Of a stretch of 64,000 nt of DNA, positions 1 to 44,389 are shown one piece after another. The stretch is from positions 96,001 through 160,000 of the IMG/VR virus record IMGVR_UViG_3300042291_000844. One strand, written 5' to 3'. The notes under the pieces are model-generated. The model saw nothing but the letters and a program-made list of their open reading frames with translations. It ran no database searches and was not told the DNA's origin. This DNA is from a virus. Its lineage: Duplodnaviria; Caudoviricetes. Numbering within the stretch: the stretch's first letter is position 1; each line of letters opens with the position of its first letter. A program made the position numbers and the translations under genes.

Positions 1-72
1 TGTCTTATCTTTAGATTTATCTGCTAATTTAGCAAAATCAGAATTTTTATACAAGTCTAATATACTAGCCAT
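1..72 (-). CDS. 5' part of a hypothetical protein running off the window (MASILDLYKNSDFAKLADKSKDKT...)
   Basis: ATG at 72, open frame to window edge, same orientation as neighbours. Confidence 0.5.
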   Translation of the reverse strand, partial: MASILDLYKNSDFAKLADKSKDKT

Positions 73-83
73 AATTTTCTTTC

Positions 84-284
84 CTATTGGTTAACTATTA
101 TTCTTTTTATAAATCTAAGAGTTTCACCTTTTTCTAATTTAAGCTTTTCTACTATATCAAGTTCAACCGGTAAATGAAAATAAGTAAATCCATCTCCATT
201 TGTATGTTCTAATAAAGCTACTACTGCTTCTTCCGATAAATTTGATTCTACAACTGTTTGGTTTACATCTAATAAATTATACAT
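84..284 (-). CDS. small acidic hypothetical protein, paralog of 299..514
   Basis: Shares LDVN..+ESN+.EE.V..L and RFIKR motifs with adjacent ORF. Confidence 0.7.
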   Translation of the reverse strand: MYNLLDVNQTVVESNLSEEAVVALLEHTNGDGFTYFHLPVELDIVEKLKLEKGETLRFIKRIIVNQ

Positions 285-298
285 AATTTTTCCTTTGT

Positions 299-514
299 TT
301 ATTCGTTTGTGTTTTCTACTCTTTTTATAAATCTAATACTTTCAGAATATTCTGCTGTTTTGAACTCATTTAATTGAGCTACATCACCAGGATAAAAATA
401 ATAATTCAATCCATCTGGAGAGATTTCTCTATTTATTAATTCTGTTACTTTTTCTTCAGTAATATTTGATTCAATGATATTATCATTTACATCAAGAATG
501 CTAATTTGTGCCAT
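299..514 (-). CDS. small acidic hypothetical protein, paralog of 84..284
   Basis: See paralog; preceded by TATTTATA motif at 537-544. Confidence 0.7.
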   Translation of the reverse strand: MAQISILDVNDNIIESNITEEKVTELINREISPDGLNYYFYPGDVAQLNEFKTAEYSESIRFIKRVENTNE

Positions 515-547
515 AGGTTTTTATTTGTTATATGCTTATAAATATCA

Positions 548-1681
548 TTAAGTATCAAAACGGACTAAAAAATTAAGATTATAATCCGGCAAGTTTTTTA
601 TTGGTTTTGGTAATTTAGCAACAACCAATAGATTATCATCGTCATCGTACAATCCAATTGTAGTGATATAAGTGGTTAAATAAGAACCAGTCGGGTCATT
701 TGATACATTTGTATAATAATCCTCCCACGAACCACTAACCGAACCAATAGACCCGCTAAAAAACTCTCTACGTGATATATCTAATACTTCTTTTATTTTT
801 CTAGTTCCTGCTGGGAATGAATTATTCACTCCTGTTATTTCAAAATCATACGAACCACTAATTAATACATTAACAGCAGTTGGATTTTGTGAATAATTAA
901 ATTCTCCGGTATTAGCAGAAATTAAAATTTCGGTTTCATATATTGTTTGAGTTGAACGATAATCTAATGAATATGAATCAAAAAGAATATCATCTGTCAT
1001 AACAATTAACCCATCATCATAAAATACGTTACCATGTACTTGTGTTTTTATATCAGTATTATCAAACGTTAATTTAGCCGTAAAATTAATTTTATTATTT
1101 TGAAAATCAATTGCAATTATAAAATACTCATCTTCATCACTATTATAAATTAATTGACAAGACCCATCATTCAAATCCATTATACCACCTGCTGATGCTG
1201 ATTTTACTTCGATATTATAAACACCAATTCCATCATTAATAGTTAAATACCCAACCCCATTATTATCTAAATCAAGACTAACTAATGTATATGAATTACC
1301 AACTTCTCTAATAATACCATATCCATCATCAAAAAAATCTAATCCACCTGCAGTTAATACAACACTTTCTTTTTTTATTTCTTCCCCAAATCTATTTCTA
1401 TCAATTGGTATTATCTGAAACGTATTAGGAAGTTGTCGTTCATATGCTAACTCTGCTAAATTTTCTGATGTACCAAATGTTGTAAAAGTATTACCATCAT
1501 GTGAATAGTATTTACTTTTCAATGAATTATATAATGCGTGAACTAAATTTGCTTCATCTACAAACAAACCAGTTTTATTTTCTACCTTTATAATAGGATA
1601 TTCACTTTCGCTGGTATTCCAAAGTTTGTATACATTGAACGACCTATTTGAAATATTTGATTTGGGTATTGATTTAAACAT
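548..1681 (-). CDS. putative virion/baseplate protein with tail-collar-like C-terminal domain
   Basis: C-terminal EFNYSQNPT...TYITTIGLYDDDDNLLVVAKL motif shared with 1799..3019; resembles P2 gpH/DUF3751-type collar domains. Confidence 0.55.
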   Translation of the reverse strand: MFKSIPKSNISNRSFNVYKLWNTSESEYPIIKVENKTGLFVDEANLVHALYNSLKSKYYSHDGNTFTTFGTSENLAELAYERQLPNTFQIIPIDRNRFGEEIKKESVVLTAGGLDFFDDGYGIIREVGNSYTLVSLDLDNNGVGYLTINDGIGVYNIEVKSASAGGIMDLNDGSCQLIYNSDEDEYFIIAIDFQNNKINFTAKLTFDNTDIKTQVHGNVFYDDGLIVMTDDILFDSYSLDYRSTQTIYETEILISANTGEFNYSQNPTAVNVLISGSYDFEITGVNNSFPAGTRKIKEVLDISRREFFSGSIGSVSGSWEDYYTNVSNDPTGSYLTTYITTIGLYDDDDNLLVVAKLPKPIKNLPDYNLNFLVRFDT

Positions 1682-21094: not shown

Positions 21095-22810
21095 CTATTT
21101 TATTTTTTTCTTAACGATATAGTTGTTAAGAACTAACGTATCCATATCACAATCTAAAAACGTATCTATTGCATCTTTAGGGGTGTTTACAATGGTCTTA
21201 TCTTTAACATTGAATGATGTATTCAAAACGATTGGATACCCATTATCTTGTTCTAATTGCATAAGCAAGGAATATACTCTACGATGTTGTTTAAAATTTA
21301 AAGTTTGTATTCTTGCAGAACCATCTATATGTGTAATAGCAGGTAGATTTTTTATATGTTCCTCTTTTACTTGAACTACCTGATTCATATAAGGAACTAA
21401 TGGTTTGTAATCAAAGTATTTTAACCTGTCTTCCTCTTTTACAATCGGAGCGAATGGTCTAAATCCTTCTCTTTTTTTAATTACCTTATTTACCCTTGCT
21501 TTCATTTGAGGGTCTCGCGGGTTAGCAAATATAGAACGATTACCGAGTGCTCTTGAACCAAATTCCATTCTACCCTCGTACCAACCGATAACGTTACCAT
21601 TTGTAATTTCTCTAGAAATAGTTTTAACAATCTGCGAATGATTCTTAAATTCATACCATACTTCATTTTCATAGTTTTTTAATTCAGTTTCAATTTCATC
21701 ATTAGTATTAAACGTACCTAAATACGGATTTGTATTTGCAACTCTAACGGCAGATTCGTTATGGGTATAATAGTAATGTAATGCACACCCAATAGCAGAA
21801 CCTGCATCAGATGGAGCAGGTGGAATCCACAATTGCTTATAACCAGTATTTTTTAGAATCTTACCATTTGCAGTTCCGTTATATGCACAGCCACCACTTA
21901 GGCACAAATTATTTGTTGCCCTAATAGCAAACATTTTATTTAATAATCTAAAAAATAGAAATTCGTATTGATGTTGAATTGTTGCTGCTAAATCTTTATG
22001 TTCTTGTGTTAATTCATCCTCTGGTAATCTATTCGGAAGTTCAAACAACTCCGCTAATTTTTCATTAAACATTGAATTGTTTGAATAATCATATGTAAAA
22101 TAATTCATATTGATTTCAAACCCACCATCTTCCGTTAATTTATATAATTGCTTAAATTTATTTAAATACGTTTCTGACTTGCCATATGGTGCTAATCCCA
22201 TTACTTTATACTCACCTTCATTTGGTTTAAATCCTAAGAAAGCGGTCATTGCAGAGTATAACATTCCTAATGAATGTGGGAATTTAATATTTTGTAATTT
22301 TGTAATATTCTTACCTTCTGCAAATGCTAAAACAGTAGTTTCCCATTCACCCACCCCATCTACTGATAATATGGTTGCCCTTTCAAATGGAGATGTATAA
22401 TAAGAATATGCTATATGTGATAGATGATGGTCACCATATGCTAAGATTATATTTGGATTTGTAATCTCATATATTTTAGATTCAATTTCTTTGGCTTGTG
22501 CTTTATTTGAATCAATAATAGATTTTCGTTTAAAGAAATTAACCAATCCACCTCGTTTAGTAGATTCTTCAATTCTCTCTAATTTTAATTTAGGGTTTTC
22601 GTAAAAGGTAACAACTGATATATCATTACCTGTTATTTTATTATCCTTATACAACCAATTAATAGCATTAGTTGGAAACGTAGCATCGTGTTTTACTCCT
22701 GTAAAACGTTCTTCCTCCATTGCACCGATAACTACTCCATCTAATATTAATGCTGCTGAGGAATCGTGATAACCACATGCTATACCTAAAATATATTTTT
22801 TATTCATCAT
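21095..22810 (-). CDS. carbamoyltransferase (NodU/CmcH/TobZ family)
   Basis: YHDSSAA, EEERF, HHLSH, DGVGE, EGEYKVMGLAPYG, GPR-like FGSRALGNRS, LNTSFN. Confidence 0.95.
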   Translation of the reverse strand: MMNKKYILGIACGYHDSSAALILDGVVIGAMEEERFTGVKHDATFPTNAINWLYKDNKITGNDISVVTFYENPKLKLERIEESTKRGGLVNFFKRKSIIDSNKAQAKEIESKIYEITNPNIILAYGDHHLSHIAYSYYTSPFERATILSVDGVGEWETTVLAFAEGKNITKLQNIKFPHSLGMLYSAMTAFLGFKPNEGEYKVMGLAPYGKSETYLNKFKQLYKLTEDGGFEINMNYFTYDYSNNSMFNEKLAELFELPNRLPEDELTQEHKDLAATIQHQYEFLFFRLLNKMFAIRATNNLCLSGGCAYNGTANGKILKNTGYKQLWIPPAPSDAGSAIGCALHYYYTHNESAVRVANTNPYLGTFNTNDEIETELKNYENEVWYEFKNHSQIVKTISREITNGNVIGWYEGRMEFGSRALGNRSIFANPRDPQMKARVNKVIKKREGFRPFAPIVKEEDRLKYFDYKPLVPYMNQVVQVKEEHIKNLPAITHIDGSARIQTLNFKQHRRVYSLLMQLEQDNGYPIVLNTSFNVKDKTIVNTPKDAIDTFLDCDMDTLVLNNYIVKKKIK

Positions 22811-25323: not shown

Positions 25324-25760
25324 TGTATTCCTATTACTTTAAATGATGGTATACCTAATTCAACCCACATATCTATTATTCGCTCATCATCATCATACGC
25401 ACAAAAAACGTTTTCTTTAATTTCAGTTTCATATATTTTTCTTTTAAAATCAGGTGCTTTTAAAAAATTATTTTCCCAACTTCTCATATATAATTTATCA
25501 TATGATATATCGTACTTTTGTAACCACTCTTTAGTAACCTTTCTAGTGGATTCAGGTCGACCTGTTAATATAATAACTTCAACCCCATTTTCTTTATAGT
25601 TCTTTGCCAATTCAATCATTGGTAAATTAGGTTCATCCATTATCATAGTTTTAGATGAATGGACAATATCCCAATCTAATTTTCCGTTTTCTTTCTTTGC
25701 TAATTCAAATCGTTTATTACTTAAAGACAAAGTATTATCTATATCAATTATTACTATCAT
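25320..25760 (-). CDS. HAD phosphatase, T4 PNK 3'-phosphatase-like
   Basis: DIDNTL (motif I), LTGRP, LYMR, YDDD. Confidence 0.8.
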   Translation of the reverse strand: MIVIIDIDNTLSLSNKRFELAKKENGKLDWDIVHSSKTMIMDEPNLPMIELAKNYKENGVEVIILTGRPESTRKVTKEWLQKYDISYDKLYMRSWENNFLKAPDFKRKIYETEIKENVFCAYDDDERIIDMWVELGIPSFKVIGIQ

Positions 25761-26956
25761 AATTCTCTTAAACCTTGTTTTTCATAACTTACAGGTACTT
25801 TGATTCCGGTATTACATCCATTACAATTATCACAAAATGTAATATATCCTAAATCGGTATAACCTAAATCAAATTTAATTAACTCTTCATTTGATATTTC
25901 ATTTAAAGTAACAAAATCATTATCACTTAAAGGGAATAAGTTTGTTCTTACTGCTGAGGTATTAAGATGACAATAATAAAACTTACCATCATTCAATCCT
26001 CTAAATGGTGCAGTACAACTATCAAAGTGTTTAATTAGTTTATCTATTTCTAAATTCTTTTTAACTCTTAAATCTCCAAAATCATACCATTCTATTTCAT
26101 TTCTAACATAATGTTTAATGTCATAATTTTTATATTCCTCAATAGTACGCATAACTTTATTTTTAAGTTTAGGTAATTTATCTGAATAATTACTTATACT
26201 TAAAATAACATCACTATCTTTTAATAATTCTAGAGTACTTTCTTTTGGAATAACTGTACCATTAGTAGTGATTATAAATTTATCTAATTTATCTATATGA
26301 TTTAATAAAATATGTTGGATTATATTTTCAATATCTGGATGTAGGAATGGTTCTCCGCCAACTAAATGAAACACACTTACAAAATCTACAACTTTAAAAT
26401 ATGAATCTATATCAGTTATAATAGTTGATAAATTTCTATGATTTGGGTTATCATAATGTGGTATAAACATATTACAATGTGAACACGCTAAGTTACATCT
26501 TTCAGTTACCAATACATCCGTTTGAAATATATGAACTAAATTCTTATGCATTAACGGCCAAATTCCTGCTATGTGTTTGTATGTAGTATGGGTTACATTA
26601 CATTCATCCAAATACTTTGTATATCGTTGTCTATATTCATCCGTTGTAATAATAACCTTTTCATCGCCTTTAAATTCATCAATATGAATTAATTTTATAT
26701 TCCTTCTATCACTTTTATAATATTTGGCTTCTCGATAATAAGAACTTATTTCATTTAAATTATTTATAATCGTACTATTTTTTACATCGTGGTCAACAAT
26801 ATATTTTATTTTTAATGCACCACTCCCAAACAAAAAATCTATACTTCTAATAAATTGGACACACTCTTTACTTGCACCAAATAAAACATATTCAGTTTCG
26901 ATATCCCAATTAGATATAAATTGTTTAAAATTATGTAATTCTGGATTATAAATCAT
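25757..26956 (-). CDS. radical SAM protein with N-terminal Rossmann-like region
   Basis: CNLACSHC; GGEPFLHP; TNG; C-terminal CxxC.C. Confidence 0.9.
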   Translation of the reverse strand: MIYNPELHNFKQFISNWDIETEYVLFGASKECVQFIRSIDFLFGSGALKIKYIVDHDVKNSTIINNLNEISSYYREAKYYKSDRRNIKLIHIDEFKGDEKVIITTDEYRQRYTKYLDECNVTHTTYKHIAGIWPLMHKNLVHIFQTDVLVTERCNLACSHCNMFIPHYDNPNHRNLSTIITDIDSYFKVVDFVSVFHLVGGEPFLHPDIENIIQHILLNHIDKLDKFIITTNGTVIPKESTLELLKDSDVILSISNYSDKLPKLKNKVMRTIEEYKNYDIKHYVRNEIEWYDFGDLRVKKNLEIDKLIKHFDSCTAPFRGLNDGKFYYCHLNTSAVRTNLFPLSDNDFVTLNEISNEELIKFDLGYTDLGYITFCDNCNGCNTGIKVPVSYEKQGLREL

Positions 26957-31724: not shown

Positions 31725-33110
31725 TTATTTTCTAAGATTTTCTAAACGAAGAATTTCATCTTTAATTTTCTGATTATATGGATTCCATTTTATATTATCC
31801 AATAACCACTTACGATAGTAGGGTGGAATGGATGCTACCGGTTTGTTTGAATACTTACCAAATGTCATATAAATCTTTTGTATCTCCCCCTCTTCATTTC
31901 GTTGTTCTGATAAATTGATACCACCCTCTAAATGGATTCCAATTTCATGCATTGGGATACCTGTAAGTTTCTTTTTATTTTCACCATACAATTCCCATAT
32001 ACCATCCTCATCTTCTTTATAGTAAAGAGATTCTACCTTACCGAACTTATCAACTGCTCCAACAAAATCCACAACTAAACAATTTTGTTTATTATCGTGA
32101 ATACGAGTTCCTCTCCCCACAAACTGATACCACCACGAAATTGATGCAGTAGGTCGACCTGTGATTAAACAATCTAATTCTGGATAATCAAATCCAACGG
32201 TCAATACATTCACCTGAACAATAACTCTAATTTTTTGATTACGAAATTCTTCAATGATTCGATTACGTTCTCCGGTTGGAGTTTCTCCATGTACTACTGC
32301 TGCAGATGGAATCTTTCCTGCTAATTGGGTTGCTTGTTCAATGGTTGGTACTGCAATTAATATTGATTTTCTATCTTGTAGTTCTCTAACTTTCTTTACA
32401 ATTTTATCTTGTAGGTTTTGATTCTCATATGCACGTGCAATGGAATCATTTGTATATTCAGCACCAGATGAATTATATACTAATGCTCCGGTATCAAAAT
32501 CATACGATTGATATTCTAATGGAGTCCAAAACCCCATCTTTACAATTTCTTCAATTTGAGAAACGTGAATGATATGTTTAAAAAATGTTCCGTGTTTAGA
32601 CCGATTCGTTAACATTACCAATTTAGAATATGGACCAGTCTCACCCATATTGGTTTGTAGTTTAAGTGGAGTTGCAGTTAAACCCAATACGTGAGTTGCC
32701 TTCATTCCATCTATAAACTTTCTTAGTTGACCATTCTTATCTCTTGGATATCTATCACACTCATCTATAATAACTTTGGTAATTCCTAATTCTCTGAACT
32801 TCCAAGCAATGTTTATGATAGAACCGATTGTTGCATAAGTAATATCACCAATCTCTTTCTCACCCATTGATGCAGAATAGATTGATGCCTTACCACCTAA
32901 GTTAATAAGTTTATTGTAGTTTTGTTCTAATAATTCTTTTGAAGGTTGAATAACCAATACCTTTTCGTTAATACCCTTTGCGATATAGGCAATAACAATT
33001 GACTTACCGAATGCAGTAGGTGCAACGATAATTGATGGTGCCATTTTTGGTGTATTAAAAAACTCAATACCAATAGCAACTGGTTCTAACTGATAATCTC
33101 TTAATTTCAT
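31725..33110 (-). CDS. superfamily 2 DExD helicase (UvsW/RadD-like)
   Basis: APTAFGKS, IIDECD, LTATP, LTVGFDYP, QFVGRGTR. Confidence 0.95.
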   Translation of the reverse strand: MKLRDYQLEPVAIGIEFFNTPKMAPSIIVAPTAFGKSIVIAYIAKGINEKVLVIQPSKELLEQNYNKLINLGGKASIYSASMGEKEIGDITYATIGSIINIAWKFRELGITKVIIDECDRYPRDKNGQLRKFIDGMKATHVLGLTATPLKLQTNMGETGPYSKLVMLTNRSKHGTFFKHIIHVSQIEEIVKMGFWTPLEYQSYDFDTGALVYNSSGAEYTNDSIARAYENQNLQDKIVKKVRELQDRKSILIAVPTIEQATQLAGKIPSAAVVHGETPTGERNRIIEEFRNQKIRVIVQVNVLTVGFDYPELDCLITGRPTASISWWYQFVGRGTRIHDNKQNCLVVDFVGAVDKFGKVESLYYKEDEDGIWELYGENKKKLTGIPMHEIGIHLEGGINLSEQRNEEGEIQKIYMTFGKYSNKPVASIPPYYRKWLLDNIKWNPYNQKIKDEILRLENLRK

Positions 33111-37382: not shown

Positions 37383-38425
37383 ATTAAATTCGTATGGGTA
37401 GTATCAATAAATTCGTATAGGTTATGAAATAGATTTGTATTTCTACCTATCTTATTAAATTCTTTTTTAAATAATTCATGTTCTGGGTGATTAGAATCCC
37501 AAACTTGTTTTAATTTAAATTCCGCTTCAGAAAATGTTCCCCAATTAGTTATTTTACCAAAAAAAACATTTACCTTTTTGCCAAAAATAGAATACATTAT
37601 ATTATAAAAGGTTTCCATTTCCATATAGTTACTATCTTGAACAACAAACGAAGTTTTTACCCATTGTAGTGTTTTTATTGTAGAAATAAAATTTAAATTA
37701 TTTATTAAGGTATCCCATTTACCACCCAATCTTGTTTTGTTTTCATATGTATCACGTGTTCCCGCATCTATTGATATTTCGCAACTTGTTACATACTTAT
37801 GAACATTTGGCATACTATCCCACATTTCCTTTGTCCACATTGAGGCATTAGTATGTAAATGTATTCTTGTTAGTTTTGGATATTTTTTTGGATTAAAATT
37901 TTTTAAATAATTTCTAAACCCAACCGAAACGAATGGGTCACCCGTACCTGTAATATATAAAGTTTTTACGTTTGCTGAATAATGGGTATCAATTTCATCT
38001 ATTGTTTTTTCAATTCGTTCTATGCCTTTACTACTTTCAACAATTAAATCTACCCTACACGATGGACATTTATAATTACAAGTCCTATCAAAATTCATTA
38101 AAATTCTGGTCGGTGTAGTCGGTTCAACAATTGGAGTTGTATACTTTGAATTTGATTTTAATGTAATTGGACCGGATACATCTCCATATTTTAATAATCT
38201 ACTTAAATATGGACACAATTCTTTGTTACAATATTTAAACGAACCATCTAAAATAGAATTTCTAATATCTAAAATAGGTTCACTATTAAAAGCATCTTTT
38301 AATGGAATTTCATTAAGTTTAATTTCGTTTGGTAACCACGATGGACAACAAACAAAACCAACATTATTATGTATTTCTAATGATGTAAACGGAACACTAC
38401 AACTATATTGTTTTAAATCTATCAC
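37379..38425 (-). CDS. radical SAM protein with N-terminal auxiliary Cys cluster
   Basis: C..PF...CC; CNYKCPSC; GDPF; ends TNLI; GTG start. Confidence 0.9.
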   Translation of the reverse strand: MIDLKQYSCSVPFTSLEIHNNVGFVCCPSWLPNEIKLNEIPLKDAFNSEPILDIRNSILDGSFKYCNKELCPYLSRLLKYGDVSGPITLKSNSKYTTPIVEPTTPTRILMNFDRTCNYKCPSCRVDLIVESSKGIERIEKTIDEIDTHYSANVKTLYITGTGDPFVSVGFRNYLKNFNPKKYPKLTRIHLHTNASMWTKEMWDSMPNVHKYVTSCEISIDAGTRDTYENKTRLGGKWDTLINNLNFISTIKTLQWVKTSFVVQDSNYMEMETFYNIMYSIFGKKVNVFFGKITNWGTFSEAEFKLKQVWDSNHPEHELFKKEFNKIGRNTNLFHNLYEFIDTTHTNLI

Positions 38426-39593: not shown

Positions 39594-40222
39594 ATGATTT
39601 TATTTATTTTATTCTTAAATTCTACAATTGGTTCATCTACATTTAAAAATTTATGTAATTTAATATAAAAATCATAACAACCTCGTGCACCAGGATGCCA
39701 ATCTATTACATCGCCACCTTCATCTGCAATAGAAGTTACTTTTATTAATTCTACAAACTTTTTTGTTTTTTCATAAAAATCATCGTTCCAGGTCACAAAA
39801 ATTGGTTCATATTTTTTATAAAAATATTTTAATTTTTTAATAAATAATATTTCAGAATCCCTATCCCCATTATACCAATGTTCAGTTTCTTTGACCCTTA
39901 GTTCTAATAGTTTTTTAGCAAACGATTTATCACTATACCATTCCCAATTTAAATATTTTAAGTTGTGATTTGTATCTCTTTCCCCAAAATATCTTCGTGG
40001 GAATCTACCGGGTGCAGTAAAGACTATAACTAATCTATCACCTTCTACATAATTTGGTATATTTCCAGTTTGATATAATATAGAATTATTATCAGACCCA
40101 AATTTTCCCAATTTAATAATATTATAATGATTAGATAAATAGTCTGTCCAGTGTGTTTCTGGTAAATCCCAATCTACAAAACTATCACCACAAATGTATA
40201 TGTTATTTTTTTTGGTTAACAT
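39590..40222 (-). CDS. SGNH/GDSL-like hydrolase or acyltransferase
   Basis: GDSF block I, N, DWHP block V; ends NKII. Confidence 0.7.
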   Translation of the reverse strand: MLTKKNNIYICGDSFVDWDLPETHWTDYLSNHYNIIKLGKFGSDNNSILYQTGNIPNYVEGDRLVIVFTAPGRFPRRYFGERDTNHNLKYLNWEWYSDKSFAKKLLELRVKETEHWYNGDRDSEILFIKKLKYFYKKYEPIFVTWNDDFYEKTKKFVELIKVTSIADEGGDVIDWHPGARGCYDFYIKLHKFLNVDEPIVEFKNKINKII

Positions 40223-40788
40223 TATATAATAGTTTTATTTGATTTTAATTTAGGATAATCAAAATCAGTTTCTGTCATCCAAATATTTAATGCGTACCTT
40301 ATCCCGTTGGTTACCGGTAAAACCCCATGGTATGTATCAGACCCATTAAATGAAATACTATCACCTAATTTTAAATCACACAATGTCAGACCAGTTAGTG
40401 TTTCAAAATCATAAGGAGGATTCACATCTTCAGTTAAAGCAAATTGTCCACCGATAAAATTATCAGAAAGAACAATTACTGTAGTTAATTCGCTTGATTT
40501 ATCCTTATGTAGATTAAGATATCTACCATCATAATATGAAGTTAGACTGATATTAAAATTCTTTAAATTAAATGATAGGTAATCAAACCATAATTTAAAG
40601 TTTCCGTTTTTATAATTATCGGTTAATAAATTAATTATTCTTTTTTTAAATTCTTCATCATACATTCTTCTACAATCCCAATGTTCGGTTGAACTATATG
40701 AAAAGGGTTCACCAAATTTAAGACAAAAATTAATTATATCGTTGGCGGTTTCTCTATTACAAAAATTATTATTTATGGTATAATTCAT
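40222..40788 (-). CDS. 2OG-Fe(II) oxygenase
   Basis: LHKD, GGQF, HGV.PV..G.RY; ends KTII. Confidence 0.85.
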   Translation of the reverse strand: MNYTINNNFCNRETANDIINFCLKFGEPFSYSSTEHWDCRRMYDEEFKKRIINLLTDNYKNGNFKLWFDYLSFNLKNFNISLTSYYDGRYLNLHKDKSSELTTVIVLSDNFIGGQFALTEDVNPPYDFETLTGLTLCDLKLGDSISFNGSDTYHGVLPVTNGIRYALNIWMTETDFDYPKLKSNKTII

Positions 40789-41606
40789 AATAGATGTGAT
40801 TTTTTTGGTTTATTATATACTAATAAATTGCCGTTATTTATAAATTTATATAATTCATCGGCAATTAATTTATATCCATTATTGCTTGGATGTTTACCTG
40901 CTGTAGTACTTATCCAATTATTACCATCCTCCCATACATCTTTTCTATTAGTATCAATTAATAAGTTTGCCATTGTTTTATTTTGATAACCCCAATATTT
41001 ATCACTCTCTATTAAATCGGTTTTATCAACTAACTTATGGATATTTCTATTAATCATTATATCAAACGCGTCACAAAAAAGATATCTGATTCCTAATTCT
41101 TTAAATATAAATTGAAGATGTAAAATATAGTTTTGATTCACTATATCATAGTAAGTATCATTGAATAAATTACCTATGTAATAATCTCTAAAATTTTTCT
41201 CCGCCCTATTATAGTTTATATTATCACTATTAACTCCATCAAAAATATATTTTAAAAGGTGTTCTTTACTTTTATATCGTTTGCCCCAAATAAAAAAATC
41301 ATCTTCAGTAGGGAAAAAAGGTAATGAATCCCGTAAAGATGATGACCACATAATAACAACAAAATCATCTTGAGTGATGATTTCGTTTTTTAATTGATAC
41401 GATACTGCGTTAAATATTGCATTATTTGAAAATGCCCCAACTCCATTATTTTTAACTTCACATTTTAATAGTTCTGATAAGTGTTTAGGCCAACAATATT
41501 TTTGTCTTATTAGTGTTCTTTGTTCAAAATCATCCGTACTATATTCATCTTCAACATTTCCACCAACCCCCTCAGTCCAACTATCTCCAAATGTAAACAA
41601 TTTCAT
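40785..41606 (-). CDS. SGNH/GDSL-like hydrolase or acyltransferase
   Basis: GDSWTEG, SN..I, HPS..GY..IA; ends SHLL. Confidence 0.75.
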   Translation of the reverse strand: MKLFTFGDSWTEGVGGNVEDEYSTDDFEQRTLIRQKYCWPKHLSELLKCEVKNNGVGAFSNNAIFNAVSYQLKNEIITQDDFVVIMWSSSLRDSLPFFPTEDDFFIWGKRYKSKEHLLKYIFDGVNSDNINYNRAEKNFRDYYIGNLFNDTYYDIVNQNYILHLQFIFKELGIRYLFCDAFDIMINRNIHKLVDKTDLIESDKYWGYQNKTMANLLIDTNRKDVWEDGNNWISTTAGKHPSNNGYKLIADELYKFINNGNLLVYNKPKKSHLL

Positions 41607-41617
41607 AATGCATAATA

Positions 41618-41761
41618 TTAAAGATGTGTTTCTTTAATTTTAGCTACAAGTTCTTGAAATGCAGTTGATATTTTTGTTTTTACAACGGTCGATAATGGAG
41701 CAATAACTGTCTTAATAACTGTTAATGGTCTTTCTTCTCTAATTTTTGGTGTCTTTGCCAT
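41618..41761 (-). CDS. 47-aa basic peptide (MAKTPKIREERPLTVIKTVIAPLSTVVKTKISTAFQELVAKIKETHL)
   Basis: Translated by hand; directly downstream of the ATP-grasp-Hint gene. Confidence 0.6.
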   Translation of the reverse strand: MAKTPKIREERPLTVIKTVIAPLSTVVKTKISTAFQELVAKIKETHL

Positions 41762-41796
41762 AATATTTTTTTATTTTAATTTAAATTATATACTAA

Positions 41797-43287
41797 TTAT
41801 AGTTTGGGTGGTGGTATTCCCTGGTCACAGGTTGGACAAAAAGGAGCACAACCATACCCACCACAATAATAAGAACCACAACCCCAACAACTATTATGCA
41901 TTACACTAAATATTCCATCTCCAATATCCACTAAGAATAAATCGCCGGGTGCAAAATCTAATGAATATATTGTTTTGTATTCAAACACCATTTCTAAATT
42001 TGTAATTGTAATTGTTGTTAATTCATTTGTATTTATATCAGTTACAACTAATTTATCTCCAACATATAAACTATTTACTTTTTCAAATCTAGTTGCGGTT
42101 GAATCTTTTTCTTCAATATAATATGTACATCCAGGTGCATCTGTCCAAGTTTTACCATCTTCTAATGTTATTTTTATCATAATCACTTCTGCCGATTGCG
42201 ATACCATACCTATTAATTCAGATTGTAATGATGTTAATGTATCATTTGATTGTTGTAACGTACTATCCCAACCATATGTCACAATTTCATTTGTAAAAGA
42301 TTTAGCTTCATTTTCATTTGAATCTACAAAATTTATAGAACGAATATAATCGCCTAATTGTATGGTGGTAACATTTGTTAATGTACCATCGTAGTTTAAG
42401 ATATTTGAATCATCATCGGTATGATAATCACTCTCAGTTTTACCTATTTCTTTTGTAATATATTTATATCTTGTTTTTTGATTTAATTTTTTGGTGCCAG
42501 TAACAAATTCATCAGCGGTAAACGAAATCGGTATTATTGAAGATTGTGTGTATCCACCCATATTAATAATATCTAAATTTGAACCATATATAATATCAAT
42601 TCCTCTTATAATTGAGTATCTACCGTCTACCAAATTATCTTCTGAAAATATAAATTCTTGAATTAAATAATTACTTTCAGCTGAGTTTATTGTATCATTT
42701 AATTCAGTATTATTTGAAACTGTATATAATGCGGGGTATTGTGTTCCATCATATTGGGGATAACGATACTTTATTAATAGGTTTGGATTTGTAGTAGTGG
42801 TATAATCTACTTCATCTAATGTATTTAAATTTAACGTATCAGATGTATACTTTGTTTTTGGAATATACTCTGAATCTTTCATTAAATTAAAAAATTCAAA
42901 TTTATCAGCACAATACGTTTCATCTACTAATGCAGTTGTATCAAATGCTTGTCTTAAAATAAATTTAGTATCAGTATCTTCTATAAATGGTACAGTAACC
43001 GAACCCGCTGGTACAATATGGCCAGTATACGTTATATTATTTTCTGCACATTTTTCTTGTAATATTTGTAGAAATCTATGTGGTTGATTTAATGGTTTGA
43101 ACGCATCACCTTCCGTCCATATATAATGGAACTCAGTAATATTATTAGCATTTAACATATCAAATAACGTAGTGTAATCTAATAAATCAGCACCCTCATT
43201 ATAAATTGTGGTATTTGTATTTATTTCTAAAAACTTAACCGAACCATTTTTTTGTAGATAATCACTACCAATTATTGTTGCTTTCAT
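41797..43287 (-). CDS. permuted ATP-grasp-like domain + Hint domain + C-terminal six-Cys peptide
   Basis: N-terminal D...FLEINTN then DK, PKT, K, LIQEFI; Hint blocks (ILNYDG...IQLGD; VNSLYVGD; IYSLDF...MHN); tail SCWGCGSYYCGGYGCAPFCPTCDQGIPPPKL. Confidence 0.7.
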   Translation of the reverse strand: MKATIIGSDYLQKNGSVKFLEINTNTTIYNEGADLLDYTTLFDMLNANNITEFHYIWTEGDAFKPLNQPHRFLQILQEKCAENNITYTGHIVPAGSVTVPFIEDTDTKFILRQAFDTTALVDETYCADKFEFFNLMKDSEYIPKTKYTSDTLNLNTLDEVDYTTTTNPNLLIKYRYPQYDGTQYPALYTVSNNTELNDTINSAESNYLIQEFIFSEDNLVDGRYSIIRGIDIIYGSNLDIINMGGYTQSSIIPISFTADEFVTGTKKLNQKTRYKYITKEIGKTESDYHTDDDSNILNYDGTLTNVTTIQLGDYIRSINFVDSNENEAKSFTNEIVTYGWDSTLQQSNDTLTSLQSELIGMVSQSAEVIMIKITLEDGKTWTDAPGCTYYIEEKDSTATRFEKVNSLYVGDKLVVTDINTNELTTITITNLEMVFEYKTIYSLDFAPGDLFLVDIGDGIFSVMHNSCWGCGSYYCGGYGCAPFCPTCDQGIPPPKL

Positions 43288-43347: not shown

Positions 43348-43650
43348 TTAAATAATACTAGGATTTTTTTTAATTTCAAGTGGTTCTAAATAATTAGAAT
43401 CAACTTCATTCCATTTTTTTAATCCACATGCATTATAAGTTGTTGAAAATACTTTTTTATTCAATGGACACCCACATTCACCACAATACGCACTCCATTT
43501 TAATCCTTTTATTACTTCTTTTCTATAATCACACCCTAAACAAACATCAAGTCTTAATTTAGCTAATTCCTCTTGTTTTGGTGTGGGGTTTAAAGAAATT
43601 TTCCAAGCATCAAATATTTCTTTATAATTAATTATAGGTTTAGGTATCAT
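43348..43650 (-). CDS. small Zn-binding protein, DUF6171-like
   Basis: RL.VC..C...C..CGC...K...C...KW; ends PSII. Confidence 0.7.
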   Translation of the reverse strand: MIPKPIINYKEIFDAWKISLNPTPKQEELAKLRLDVCLGCDYRKEVIKGLKWSAYCGECGCPLNKKVFSTTYNACGLKKWNEVDSNYLEPLEIKKNPSII

Positions 43651-43651
43651 A

Positions 43652-44389
43652 TTATATTAATGTTTTATTATTTTTTTGAATATCGTAATAATCATAAATA
43701 TCATTATATTTTTTGATGAAATCATCATTCATTTTTAAATTACAATCAAAATGTTGACTTCCATTTAAGTTTTCCATTTTAAATGGTTTATCTGTTTTAT
43801 TAGATACCCATTCCTCTAATTCTGTAAAATTTCCAAATTCAAACCATTTTATTTTTGGGTTATTATTATGCCAAAATGATATTGGCCTGAATAATATTAA
43901 TAACATATTTTCCAGATAATCGTCCAAATACTTTTGAATTCCATTTCTTTTTGCAAATTCTTTAATTACTAAAATTTGAGAAGTTAGTGATATTAAATCT
44001 AAATCTTTAAAAAATAATATATCATCCATATTTAATTTTTTTAGTATATTTACTAATTCGTTTGGATATTTTAGATGTTCCATTTCGACCATATCAATTA
44101 TATGTTTCCATAATGAAATAAATCGTTCATATCTATTTCGTTTAATTGTTATGATATCATACTCATTCCCAAATTTTAATAGTAATAAATCTAATCTTTC
44201 GTGAAGATGTACCATATTATCTGCGAGCGATTCATTACTCAAAGTTAAATTAATGGGTATATGGTAATTATCTACAAATGATTGGTCAAAATGTTCAATT
44301 TTAAATCCACTTCTTAAACATGATATATAAAATGAAGTGGATGCACATCTTGGTAATGATATAAATAAAAATTTATTCTCTACTAACAC
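43652..44389 (-). CDS. sulfotransferase-like protein
   Basis: FISLPRCASTS PAPS loop; RN.YERFIS.W; ends KTLI. Confidence 0.75.
   Translation of the reverse strand: MLVENKFLFISLPRCASTSFYISCLRSGFKIEHFDQSFVDNYHIPINLTLSNESLADNMVHLHERLDLLLLKFGNEYDIITIKRNRYERFISLWKHIIDMVEMEHLKYPNELVNILKKLNMDDILFFKDLDLISLTSQILVIKEFAKRNGIQKYLDDYLENMLLILFRPISFWHNNNPKIKWFEFGNFTELEEWVSNKTDKPFKMENLNGSQHFDCNLKMNDDFIKKYNDIYDYYDIQKNNKTLI

Follow-up and report, generated by a model that had tools for sequence, protein, structure and literature searches.

A candidate self-processing peptide carrier of phages: an ATP-grasp ligase domain, an apparently one-sided Hint domain and a polymorphic cysteine-rich tail in one protein

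INTRODUCTION

What might a phage gain from an enzyme that carries a Hint domain and a small cysteine-rich peptide on its own C-terminus? The question is raised by an open reading frame (ORF) of 496 aa at 41797..43287 (minus strand, ATG start) in a stretch of 64,000 nucleotides from a virus of the Caudoviricetes (Duplodnaviria), corresponding to positions 96,001 to 160,000 of IMG/VR record IMGVR_UViG_3300042291_000844; the whole stretch is referred to below as the window, and the ORF as the ligase-Hint gene. An earlier note, made from the letters of the window, had given the position of the ORF and the codon of His289 (42421-42423) as we find them, and had read the gene product as an ATP-grasp enzyme fused through a Hint domain to a six-cysteine peptide that would be its own substrate. 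The observation as a whole was confirmed, and the three-part anatomy, running from ATP-grasp through Hint to the six-Cys tail, was upheld by a structure model. The interpretation fared less evenly: the anatomy, the one-sided character of the Hint domain, the cleavage logic and the conservation of a His-Asn pair and of an early Cys stood, whereas a conserved free N-terminal Ser, a new circular permutation and a tail that is hypervariable within the close clade did not. On the combined evidence, we lean towards a self-processing carrier, in which a ligase domain and a one-sided Hint domain would hold a polymorphic Cys-rich cargo that is to be released.

RESULTS

A Hint domain with an apparently one-sided active site

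The protein was modelled with AlphaFold2 (AF2) from a 133-sequence alignment that included distant representatives, an earlier alignment of 29 close homologues having given a predicted local distance difference test (pLDDT) score of only 46. The new model reached a pLDDT of 90.4 and a predicted template modelling score (pTM) of 0.85, and it is poorly defined only at residues 469-496, in the tail (pLDDT <50). When it was compared with the Protein Data Bank (PDB) by Foldseek, the top 48 matches were all Hint domains, inteins, bacterial intein-like (BIL) domains or hedgehog proteins, with 1AT0 at the head (E = 5.5e-8) and with the BIL domain 2LWY, the BIL2 domain 6Y75 and the Mtu RecA mini-intein among them. 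VIA-align, which is independent of Foldseek, superimposed model residues 285-466 on Hint structures at Z scores of 16.2-13, with root mean square deviations of ~2.0-2.4 Å over 135-150 residues, and placed model residues 289..465 opposite residues 1..440 of the Mtu RecA intein and 289..466 opposite 258..401 of hedgehog. These ranges fix the register, putting His289 at the site of the catalytic Cys1 and Asn465 at the site of the terminal Asn. Profile comparisons led to the same result: the family profile matched the KlbA intein in the PDB (E = 1.7e-9), and hhalign against the classical Hint domains of longer relatives gave a probability of 99.1 % and an E value of 1e-18, with residue 289 opposite Cys1 and the His-Asn (HN) pair opposite HN. 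By structure as well as by profile comparison, residues 289-465 (41893..42423, minus strand) thus belong to the Hint superfamily at the level of the fold, as the earlier note had proposed. PF07591 and other Pfam Hint models did not match the query's own Hint domain, and the PT-HINT matches of 19/83 relatives concern additional Hint domains at the C-terminus and not the one that they share with the query.

Residue conservation was counted over 117 representatives of 22-55 % identity. Position 1 of the Hint domain is occupied by His in 31 of them, Lys in 18, Gly in 12, Leu in 11, Ile in 9 and Ser in 9, i.e., by no conserved nucleophile, and the block-B TxxH motif is absent, positions 382-387 of the query reading TDAPGC and the family having no conserved Thr or His there. 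His464 and Asn465, by comparison, are retained in 110 and 115 representatives, respectively, and without exception in the close clade; 106 representatives have a Cys a few residues past the pair. The residue that follows Asn465 (+1) varies (Ala in 26, Pro in 15, Val in 10, Tyr in 10 and Ser in 6, with Gly also represented) and is S, G, A, T, D or P in the close clade. Although it is Ser466 in the query, a free N-terminal Ser, which the earlier note had expected the released peptide to offer for ligation or cyclization, is therefore no conserved property of the family.

In protein splicing, the N-S acyl shift requires Cys or Ser at position 1 together with the block-B His, while cleavage of the C-terminal junction requires the terminal Asn only and is aided by the penultimate His. 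With neither a nucleophile at position 1 nor the TxxH motif, only the C-terminal reaction would be possible. The domain appears one-sided in just this sense, having lost the residues of the N-terminal acyl shift and kept the C-terminal HN. A splicing intein is excluded, as Cys1 and TxxH are missing and the +1 residue varies instead of being a conserved Cys, Ser or Thr; of the hallmarks of an intein, the terminal His-Asn is the one that was found. The earlier note had reasoned from the query that His at position 1, a missing block-B His and an intact HN would allow only Asn cyclization and C-terminal cleavage. The residue counts and alignments bear out the pattern and lend the reasoning further weight, HN being practically the sole strongly conserved Hint pair in the family. 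That this pair alone was retained over such deep divergence is our main argument for C-terminal cleavage as the selected function.

A polymorphic, cysteine-rich tail behind the His-Asn pair

The protein ends with ...GIFSVMHN|SCWGCGSYYCGGYGCAPFCPTCDQGIPPPKL-stop, the junction being encoded by 41893-41895 (Asn465) and 41890-41892 (Ser466). The 31-aa tail (residues 466-496; 41800..41892, minus strand; stop codon at 41797-41799) has six Cys, a single Lys (K495) and a computed reduced mass of 3231.7 Da. Between subfamilies the region past HN cannot be aligned, ranging from 0 to >200 aa and from 0 to 16 Cys, so that the Hint domain lies directly N-terminal to a polymorphic C-terminal module, as do PT-HINT and BIL domains. 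The expectation of a variable peptide in homologues that preserve HN and an early Cys was borne out at the level of the family.

Among the 115 representatives with a terminal Asn, 89 continue into a plain tail, 17 into a classical Hint domain (CF[VI]AGT...) and 9 into a motif resembling the self-cleavage site of Peptidase_S74. Of the 17 classical Hint domains, 12 begin within 7 residues of HN and have no Cys-rich cargo in front of them, and the other 5 follow a Cys-rich tail; the S74-like motif follows a Cys-rich cargo in all nine. Pfam recognized Peptidase_S74 in 8/83 members (e.g., P0168) and PT-HINT or intein models in 19/83. The Cys-rich segment is therefore sometimes placed between two self-cleaving junctions, as would be expected of an excised product. 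Two further arrangements were noted among the relatives with classical Hint domains. In P0123, P0130, P0131, P0122, P0129 and P0133, the classical Hint domain is inserted between ...C..C.GG and a K-rich stub (HN|KK, HN|KKF or HN|AKKF); excision and ligation would restore an ordinary tail end (...GG-KK), but at +1 these relatives have Lys, Ala or Val, none of which is usable in canonical splicing. In P0230, P0244, P0250 and P0259 (741-754 aa), two classical Hint domains follow HN in tandem without a Cys-rich cargo, joined by linkers of 4-7 residues (KELT, KVLQPVT, YSHNQF and FKYSS).

The number of Cys in the cargo is even in 91 cases (six in 32, eight in 38 and ten in 11 cargos) and odd in 6, of which at least one is a parsing artefact. 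This parity, to which the query conforms with its six Cys in 31 aa, points to pairing of the cargo cysteines as disulfides and argues against a fixed metal site; it would suit a disulfide-rich mini-protein of the knottin or cyclotide-like kind. A second regularity concerns Lys, of which at least one is present in 69/69 cargos of 20-90 aa and exactly one in 46/69; its frequency is 14.7 % past the last Cys, compared with 2.2 % before the last Cys and 5.3 % in the body of the protein. Exactly one Lys, located within the last 5 residues, was found in 120/120 close tails. No Asp or Glu is conserved across the tails, either in the close clade or in the family.

Within the close clade the tail follows the framework C-W-C-[PS]-W-x-Y-C-G-x-[WY]-C-x-S-x-[WY]-C-x-x-C, succeeded by a variable end and K-[LIFVA], of which the tails of the window and of locus L006 are variants longer by one residue. 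By a crude Nei-Gojobori estimate, dN/dS is 0.18 for the enzyme body (dN 0.09, dS 0.52; 0.18 in both enzyme domains), 0.18 for the tail core (dN 0.20, dS 1.10) and 0.54 for the region after the last Cys (dN 0.42, dS 0.79). The tail core is accordingly under purifying selection and, within the close clade, is not hypervariable. Positive selection on the tail was considered and rejected, there being no excess of nonsynonymous changes in the core or past the last Cys. As both dN and dS of the tail core are about twice those of the body, the figures hint instead at recombinational exchange of tail cassettes. The excess of dS and dN in the tail core over the body was measured between the same genome pairs (homologous tails L006-L085). 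In one metatranscriptome contig (X8 record 25), both flanks match the window and 41759-41860 does not.

An ATP-grasp domain of the YgiC/GspS type

Residues 1-282 (42442..43287, minus strand) form an ATP-grasp amide-ligase domain, separated from the Hint domain by a variable linker (residues 283-288; 42424..42441, minus strand) whose column entropy of 1.68 is the highest outside the tail end and which lies in a block, 281-290, with a pLDDT of 67. In VIA-align, the N-terminal domain is closest to YgiC with bound ADP (7UKA; Z 9.9, model 1..280 = chain 94..378), followed by E. coli GspS (2IO7; Z 9.2, 2..282 = 311..609) and 3K1T (Z 9.1), by eukaryotic glutathione and homoglutathione synthetases (Z 8.0-8.6), by Cp1B (Z 7.7) and by trypanothione synthetase (Z 7.5). 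Classical RimK, LysX and TTLL scored about Z 6 (RimK 6.3 and 5.6) and were aligned only from residue 50 on. At Z ≥5.7, the matches other than Hint domains are ATP-grasp enzymes without exception.

The sequence link is far looser. Local hhalign against the single sequence of E. coli YgiC gave E = 0.012 and a probability of 3.7 %, in a collinear alignment with D9, E21 and N23 opposite RLD...LLENN; GSP_synth (PF03738) matched neither the query (E up to 10) nor related virus record G001. The assignment as a ligase is consequently based on the fold and the motif. Residues D9 (114 of the 117 representatives) and E21, N23, R112, D122, K173 and R228 (116 each) are near-invariant, as are T24, D104 and Y125. 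D9, E21 and N23 are putative ligands of Mg by their correspondence to D318, E330 and N332 of GspS. Since D9, E21, N23, R112, D122, K173 and R228 are so rarely replaced, the domain is, as judged by its conservation, almost certainly catalytically active. By analogy with its structural neighbours, it would be expected to join a carboxylate to an amine as an amide at the expense of ATP.

As the phage domain begins at YgiC residue 94, about 95 residues of YgiC are missing from it. The match is otherwise collinear, and in having the ExN motif at its N-terminus the domain therefore follows a layout familiar from the GspS/YgiC clade. Hence, of the earlier note's claim of an ATP-grasp domain with an N-terminal ExN, the fold and the motif hold, and the suggestion of a new circular permutation is ruled out, the permuted order being the clade's own. 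For the eukaryotic glutathione synthetase, the permutation is credited to Polekhina et al. 1999 in the reference list of PMC2213659. YgiC and YjfC are peptide-spermidine ligases, for which PMC12568646 cites Pederick et al. 2023 and with which the RefSeq product name agrees.

Distribution of the family

A word-indexed search retrieved 579 relatives of 490-500 aa, the best 120 of the 579 being 65-88 % identical to the query, and an exhaustive search of representatives added 275 distant clusters reaching down to ~22 % identity. All the relatives found are viral or metagenomic, and 93 loci of the family are in IMG/VR. The ligase-Hint gene is thus a conserved phage gene under selection. Searches with the single sequence matched no Pfam family at E up to 10, gave only a 0.25 match in PHROGs and no match in the PDB; tblastn against 50,697 deposited phage records was negative, and no cellular relative appeared among 185,579 prokaryote genomes (one per species) in a scan sensitive to close relatives only. 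Contigs from three metatranscriptome libraries cover relatives at ~85-92 % identity; because DNA carry-over is possible, they are not taken as evidence of expression. Literature and library searches returned no description of a fusion of ATP-grasp, Hint and Cys-rich peptide, and nothing on such a design was found under Hint and cyanophage, BIL and phage, or phage RiPP (ribosomally made peptide with post-translational modifications) with ATP-grasp and intein. The statement of the earlier note that no phage system of this design had been described therefore agrees with the literature found, but this phage is not alone in having it, as several hundred phage proteins share the design.

A predicted 47-aa partner protein and the gene neighborhood

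Gene order was compared over 85 loci, all of which (85/85) hold the ligase-Hint gene as position 0. In the window, the neighboring genes are all co-oriented with it, and ATGA overlaps are frequent. The next gene downstream (position +1; 41618..41761, minus strand) encodes a protein of 47 aa in 79/83 loci, with the pattern ..ERP...IK....P[LI]S..[LV]KTK...AF..VV..IK.KHL; it also adjoins distant relatives on three unrelated contigs (L003-L005). Prediction of its complex with the ligase scored 0.83, compared with 0.31 for the best control, with runs sharing at least 74 % of contacts and with a partner pLDDT of at least 72; the mark applied to this score was reached by 58/80 solved complexes and by 2/110 mismatched pairs. 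The 47-aa protein is accordingly predicted to bind the ligase domain. Its confident contacts are with strand positions 6, 8, 10 and 12 and with 223/225/.../233, and a few contacts touch the Hint domain; because the strand positions alternate with D9 and R228, the partner would sit on the side of the sheet that faces away from the active site. If the model is correct, the 47-aa protein is probably a small structural subunit and may stand in for some of the missing N-terminal residues. The alternative of a substrate or precursor was set aside, as an interface at the back of the sheet makes a structural subunit likelier.

Upstream, the most constant neighbor (position -1; 43348..43650, minus strand; 74/77 loci) is a 100-aa CxxC/CxxCxC protein with no Pfam match and a weak Atlas lead to DUF6171 in 15 % of members, for which the role of a metal-binding or redox partner could apply. 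It is preceded at position -2 (43652..44389, minus strand; 64/76 loci) by a 245-aa protein, again with no Pfam match, whose description as sulfotransferase-like is only a lead from Atlas (Sulfotransfer_2, score 0.96, 182 shared features). Position +2 (40785..41606, minus strand; 48/82 loci) holds a 273-aa SGNH/GDSL-like (DUF6071-like) protein with sub-threshold Pfam matches to DUF6071 and Lipase_GDSL, and position +3 (40222..40788, minus strand; 54/78 loci) a 188-aa 2-oxoglutarate (2OG)-Fe(II) oxygenase with an above-cut-off match to 2OG-FeII_Oxy_3 (31.6 bits), one of several copies in the island. Given the abundance of Trp and Tyr in the tails, such enzymes are compatible with tailoring of the peptide, but they fit glycan or metabolite chemistry just as well and are read here as context.

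Several other observations were made on the surroundings of the gene. In a relative on a 324-kb NCBI metagenome contig (L002:1-7900), the 8 kb upstream encode a Trp halogenase, an APS kinase, a GT25 glycosyltransferase, a DUF2061 protein, two 2OG oxygenases and a carbamoyltransferase; the tails of the L002 clade hold 3-4 Trp. In the window, a NodU/CmcH-like carbamoyltransferase (21095-22810, minus strand; PHROG 1601, E = 9.8e-114) and a radical S-adenosylmethionine (radical-SAM) protein (25757-26956, minus strand) are encoded 15-20 kb from the ligase-Hint gene in the same direction. Most of the ORFs that flank it between 36738 and 46877 (minus strand) end in two aliphatic residues (..II, ..LI or ..LL), often at ATGA overlaps, e.g., those at 38425, 39075, 39590, 40222, 40785, 43348, 43652, 44389, 45034 and 46278; the ligase-Hint protein itself ends in KL.

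The source phage is large, uncultured and myovirus-like, and its window also includes baseplate wedge and RNA ligase genes. DNA near-identical to the window is present in several lake-water metagenome runs, and the longest contigs measure 238 kb for the ligase-Hint protein and 324 kb for its relatives. By the helicase at 31725-33110 (minus strand), the nearest deposited phages infect Bacteroidota, at 34-38 % identity (csAssE-Sib, Bacteroides BS-TP2, and Cellulophaga phi17:2 and phi4:1).

DISCUSSION

The retention of HN in an otherwise degenerate Hint active site, directly in front of a polymorphic Cys-rich module, is most simply accommodated by a carrier that releases its own cargo. In such a carrier, Asn465 would cyclize to a succinimide and the N465-S466 bond would break, yielding a carrier of 52.8 kDa and a peptide of 3231.7 Da, whose six cysteines would pair into three disulfides once the peptide had left the reducing cytoplasm, e.g., at lysis. 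Asn cyclization with C-terminal cleavage, taken as such, we regard as more likely than not on the pattern of conservation. The ligase could modify the cargo while it is tethered, either on the C-terminal carboxylate or on the single Lys, whose aminobutyl side chain is similar to the amine of the polyamines on which YgiC and GspS act, and the fused enzyme would then play the part of a RiPP leader that removes itself. This step is drawn from the chemistry of related enzymes, and we think it possible but, on balance, doubtful; the neighboring enzymes might, in addition, tailor the tail.

Several points weigh against the self-processing carrier: (i) we infer release by the Hint domain entirely from conservation, and no cleavage product has been observed so far; (ii) the query is blank in Pfam, PHROGs and single-sequence PDB searches, and the link in sequence between its N-terminal domain and YgiC is weak; (iii) the tail is modelled at low confidence, and the model offers no tie between it and the ligase active site; (iv) the 47-aa partner is predicted to bind away from the catalytic face; (v) in the absence of a signal peptide, the disulfides would have to await lysis or need a dedicated oxidase; and (vi) besides the 12 relatives in which a Hint domain starts within 7 residues of HN, 6 have a Cys-free tail (five of them of 3-7 residues), and the ligase residues are kept in these relatives, so that the ligase need not depend on a Cys-rich cargo.

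The last of these points also supports the likeliest rival, in which the Hint domain releases the cargo as in pretoxin-Hint toxins and the ATP-grasp enzyme does not touch it. The ligase would then make another product, e.g., a peptide-polyamine conjugate, or modify a phage or host protein, and the fusion would serve co-expression, stoichiometry or delivery. A polymorphic cargo placed after Hint mirrors PT-HINT, the extra Hint domains of the relatives match Pfam PT-HINT at 2.6e-21, and a partner bound away from the catalytic face is uninformative on the tail. However, the family-wide Lys near the end of the cargo fits an amine or carboxylate handle for an amide ligase, the fusion of ligase, Hint and cargo has been maintained over 22-88 % identity in hundreds of proteins, and the protein lacks the trafficking and secretion domains of polymorphic toxins, nor was an immunity-like gene identified. 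We consider this division of labor unlikely in either form of its ligase product.

Less likely still, in our view, is the most elaborate version of the carrier, a synthesis of peptides with the enzyme as leader, by which the ligase and its 47-aa subunit would modify the cargo, the one-sided Hint domain would free the product and cystine-stabilized peptides made by the phage would be released at lysis. The modification might be a head-to-tail closure of the backbone or an acylation or amidation at the terminal Lys or carboxylate, and the products possibly cyclotide-like effectors or signals.

We find it improbable that the tail stays attached, with HN structural or very slow and the Cys-rich tail a permanent metal-binding or disulfide knob, such as a docking or regulatory module. 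The CxC and CxxC spacings of the tail and the purifying selection on its Cys framework and several aromatic positions in the close clade would suit such a knob, as would the missing cleavage product. Nevertheless, the preservation of HN after loss of the other catalytic Hint residues is hard to explain without Asn cyclization, the cargo differs widely between subfamilies in sequence, length (20 to >200 aa) and number of Cys, its even parity (91 versus 6) fits disulfide pairs and not Cys4 or Cys3His sites, and some cargos are followed by a second self-cleaving module. Very improbable, finally, is a decoration in which the ligase would join the cargo Lys or carboxylate to a structural or cluster protein of the phage as a polymorphic, adhesin-like knob: the chemistry of coupling carboxylates to amines, a cargo as polymorphic as receptor-binding tips and the S74-like motif of nine relatives, a module typical of tail fibers and spikes, speak for it, but there is no direct evidence, no acceptor protein was identified, and the island that holds the gene is made up of oxygenases and of sulfotransferase-like and SGNH-like enzymes, not of structural genes.

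Should the Hint domain free the tail as the self-processing carrier requires, the family would be a large undescribed source of phage disulfide-rich peptides, with several hundred members on lake and marine jumbo-phage contigs, made without signal peptide, leader protease or separate precursor gene. It would extend the logic of pretoxin-Hint proteins from bacterial polymorphic toxins to phages, provide a natural Hint domain specialized for C-terminal cleavage alone and offer a testable amide ligase fused to its presumed substrate. The polymorphism of the cargo suggests an arms-race function, such as that of an effector, an adhesin or a signal, and a self-releasing carrier could be a natural scaffold for peptide production. 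If the tail is not released, what remains is an unusual fusion of domains. The combination is one of a Hint-released polymorphic cargo and a GspS-type ligase, both of known kinds, and it would become categorically new only with the demonstration of ligase chemistry on the enzyme's own tail.

The closest known relatives of the Hint part are the BIL and PT-HINT domains (2LWY and 6Y75/6TMM), which share its fold at Z 15.8-16.0. Neither are mobile inteins, and, like the query, they adjoin a variable C-terminal module, which they are thought to free by autoproteolysis and not by splicing. The query differs from them in lacking the position-1 nucleophile and TxxH, in being fused to an ATP-grasp enzyme instead of a toxin-trafficking region, in carrying a small peptide of the disulfide type and not an enzyme toxin as cargo and in belonging to a phage-encoded family; the longer relatives carry extra domains that Pfam calls PT-HINT, while the query's own Hint domain is unmatched. 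Hedgehog (Hog, 1AT0), the top Foldseek match (TM by target 0.74), is likewise a one-sided, self-cleaving domain that matures an adjacent signaling module. Its polarity is the opposite one: Hog cuts at its N-terminal Cys via a thioester and has no terminal Asn, whereas the query has no Cys1 and has kept HN.

On the side of the ligase, YgiC/YjfC, GspS and trypanothione synthetase (7UKA, 7UK6, 2IO7 and 2VPM) are the best structural matches to residues 1-282 (Z 9.9, 9.2 and 7.5), and the query shares with them the collinear order and the D...ExN metal motif that precedes the ATP-binding lysine. In contrast to these enzymes, it has no significant sequence match, is shorter by ~95 residues at the N-terminus and has a separate 47-aa protein predicted on its sheet, and where the RLD motif of YgiC has an Arg, two positions ahead of the first Asp, the phage family has Gly, Ala or Ser. 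Eukaryotic glutathione synthetase (Z 8.0-8.6 over residues 1-283) is permuted in the same way with respect to classical ATP-grasps but is much larger, acts on small-molecule substrates and has neither a Hint domain nor an appended peptide.

Graspetides of the microviridin type and other leader-dependent RiPPs also resemble the system, as they too pair an ATP-grasp enzyme with a short ribosomal peptide and candidate tailoring genes. Graspetide ligases are RimK-like, and RimK is the weaker match to the query (Z 6.3, compared with 9.9 for YgiC); they act in trans on a precursor composed of leader and core, and they need conserved pairs of Asp/Glu and Thr/Ser/Lys in the core, for which the tails, with no conserved acidic residue, do not provide. 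Neither the RimK-like ligase nor the conserved acidic residues of a graspetide core were found here; in the phage protein, the enzyme itself would be the leader, to be removed by its own Hint domain.

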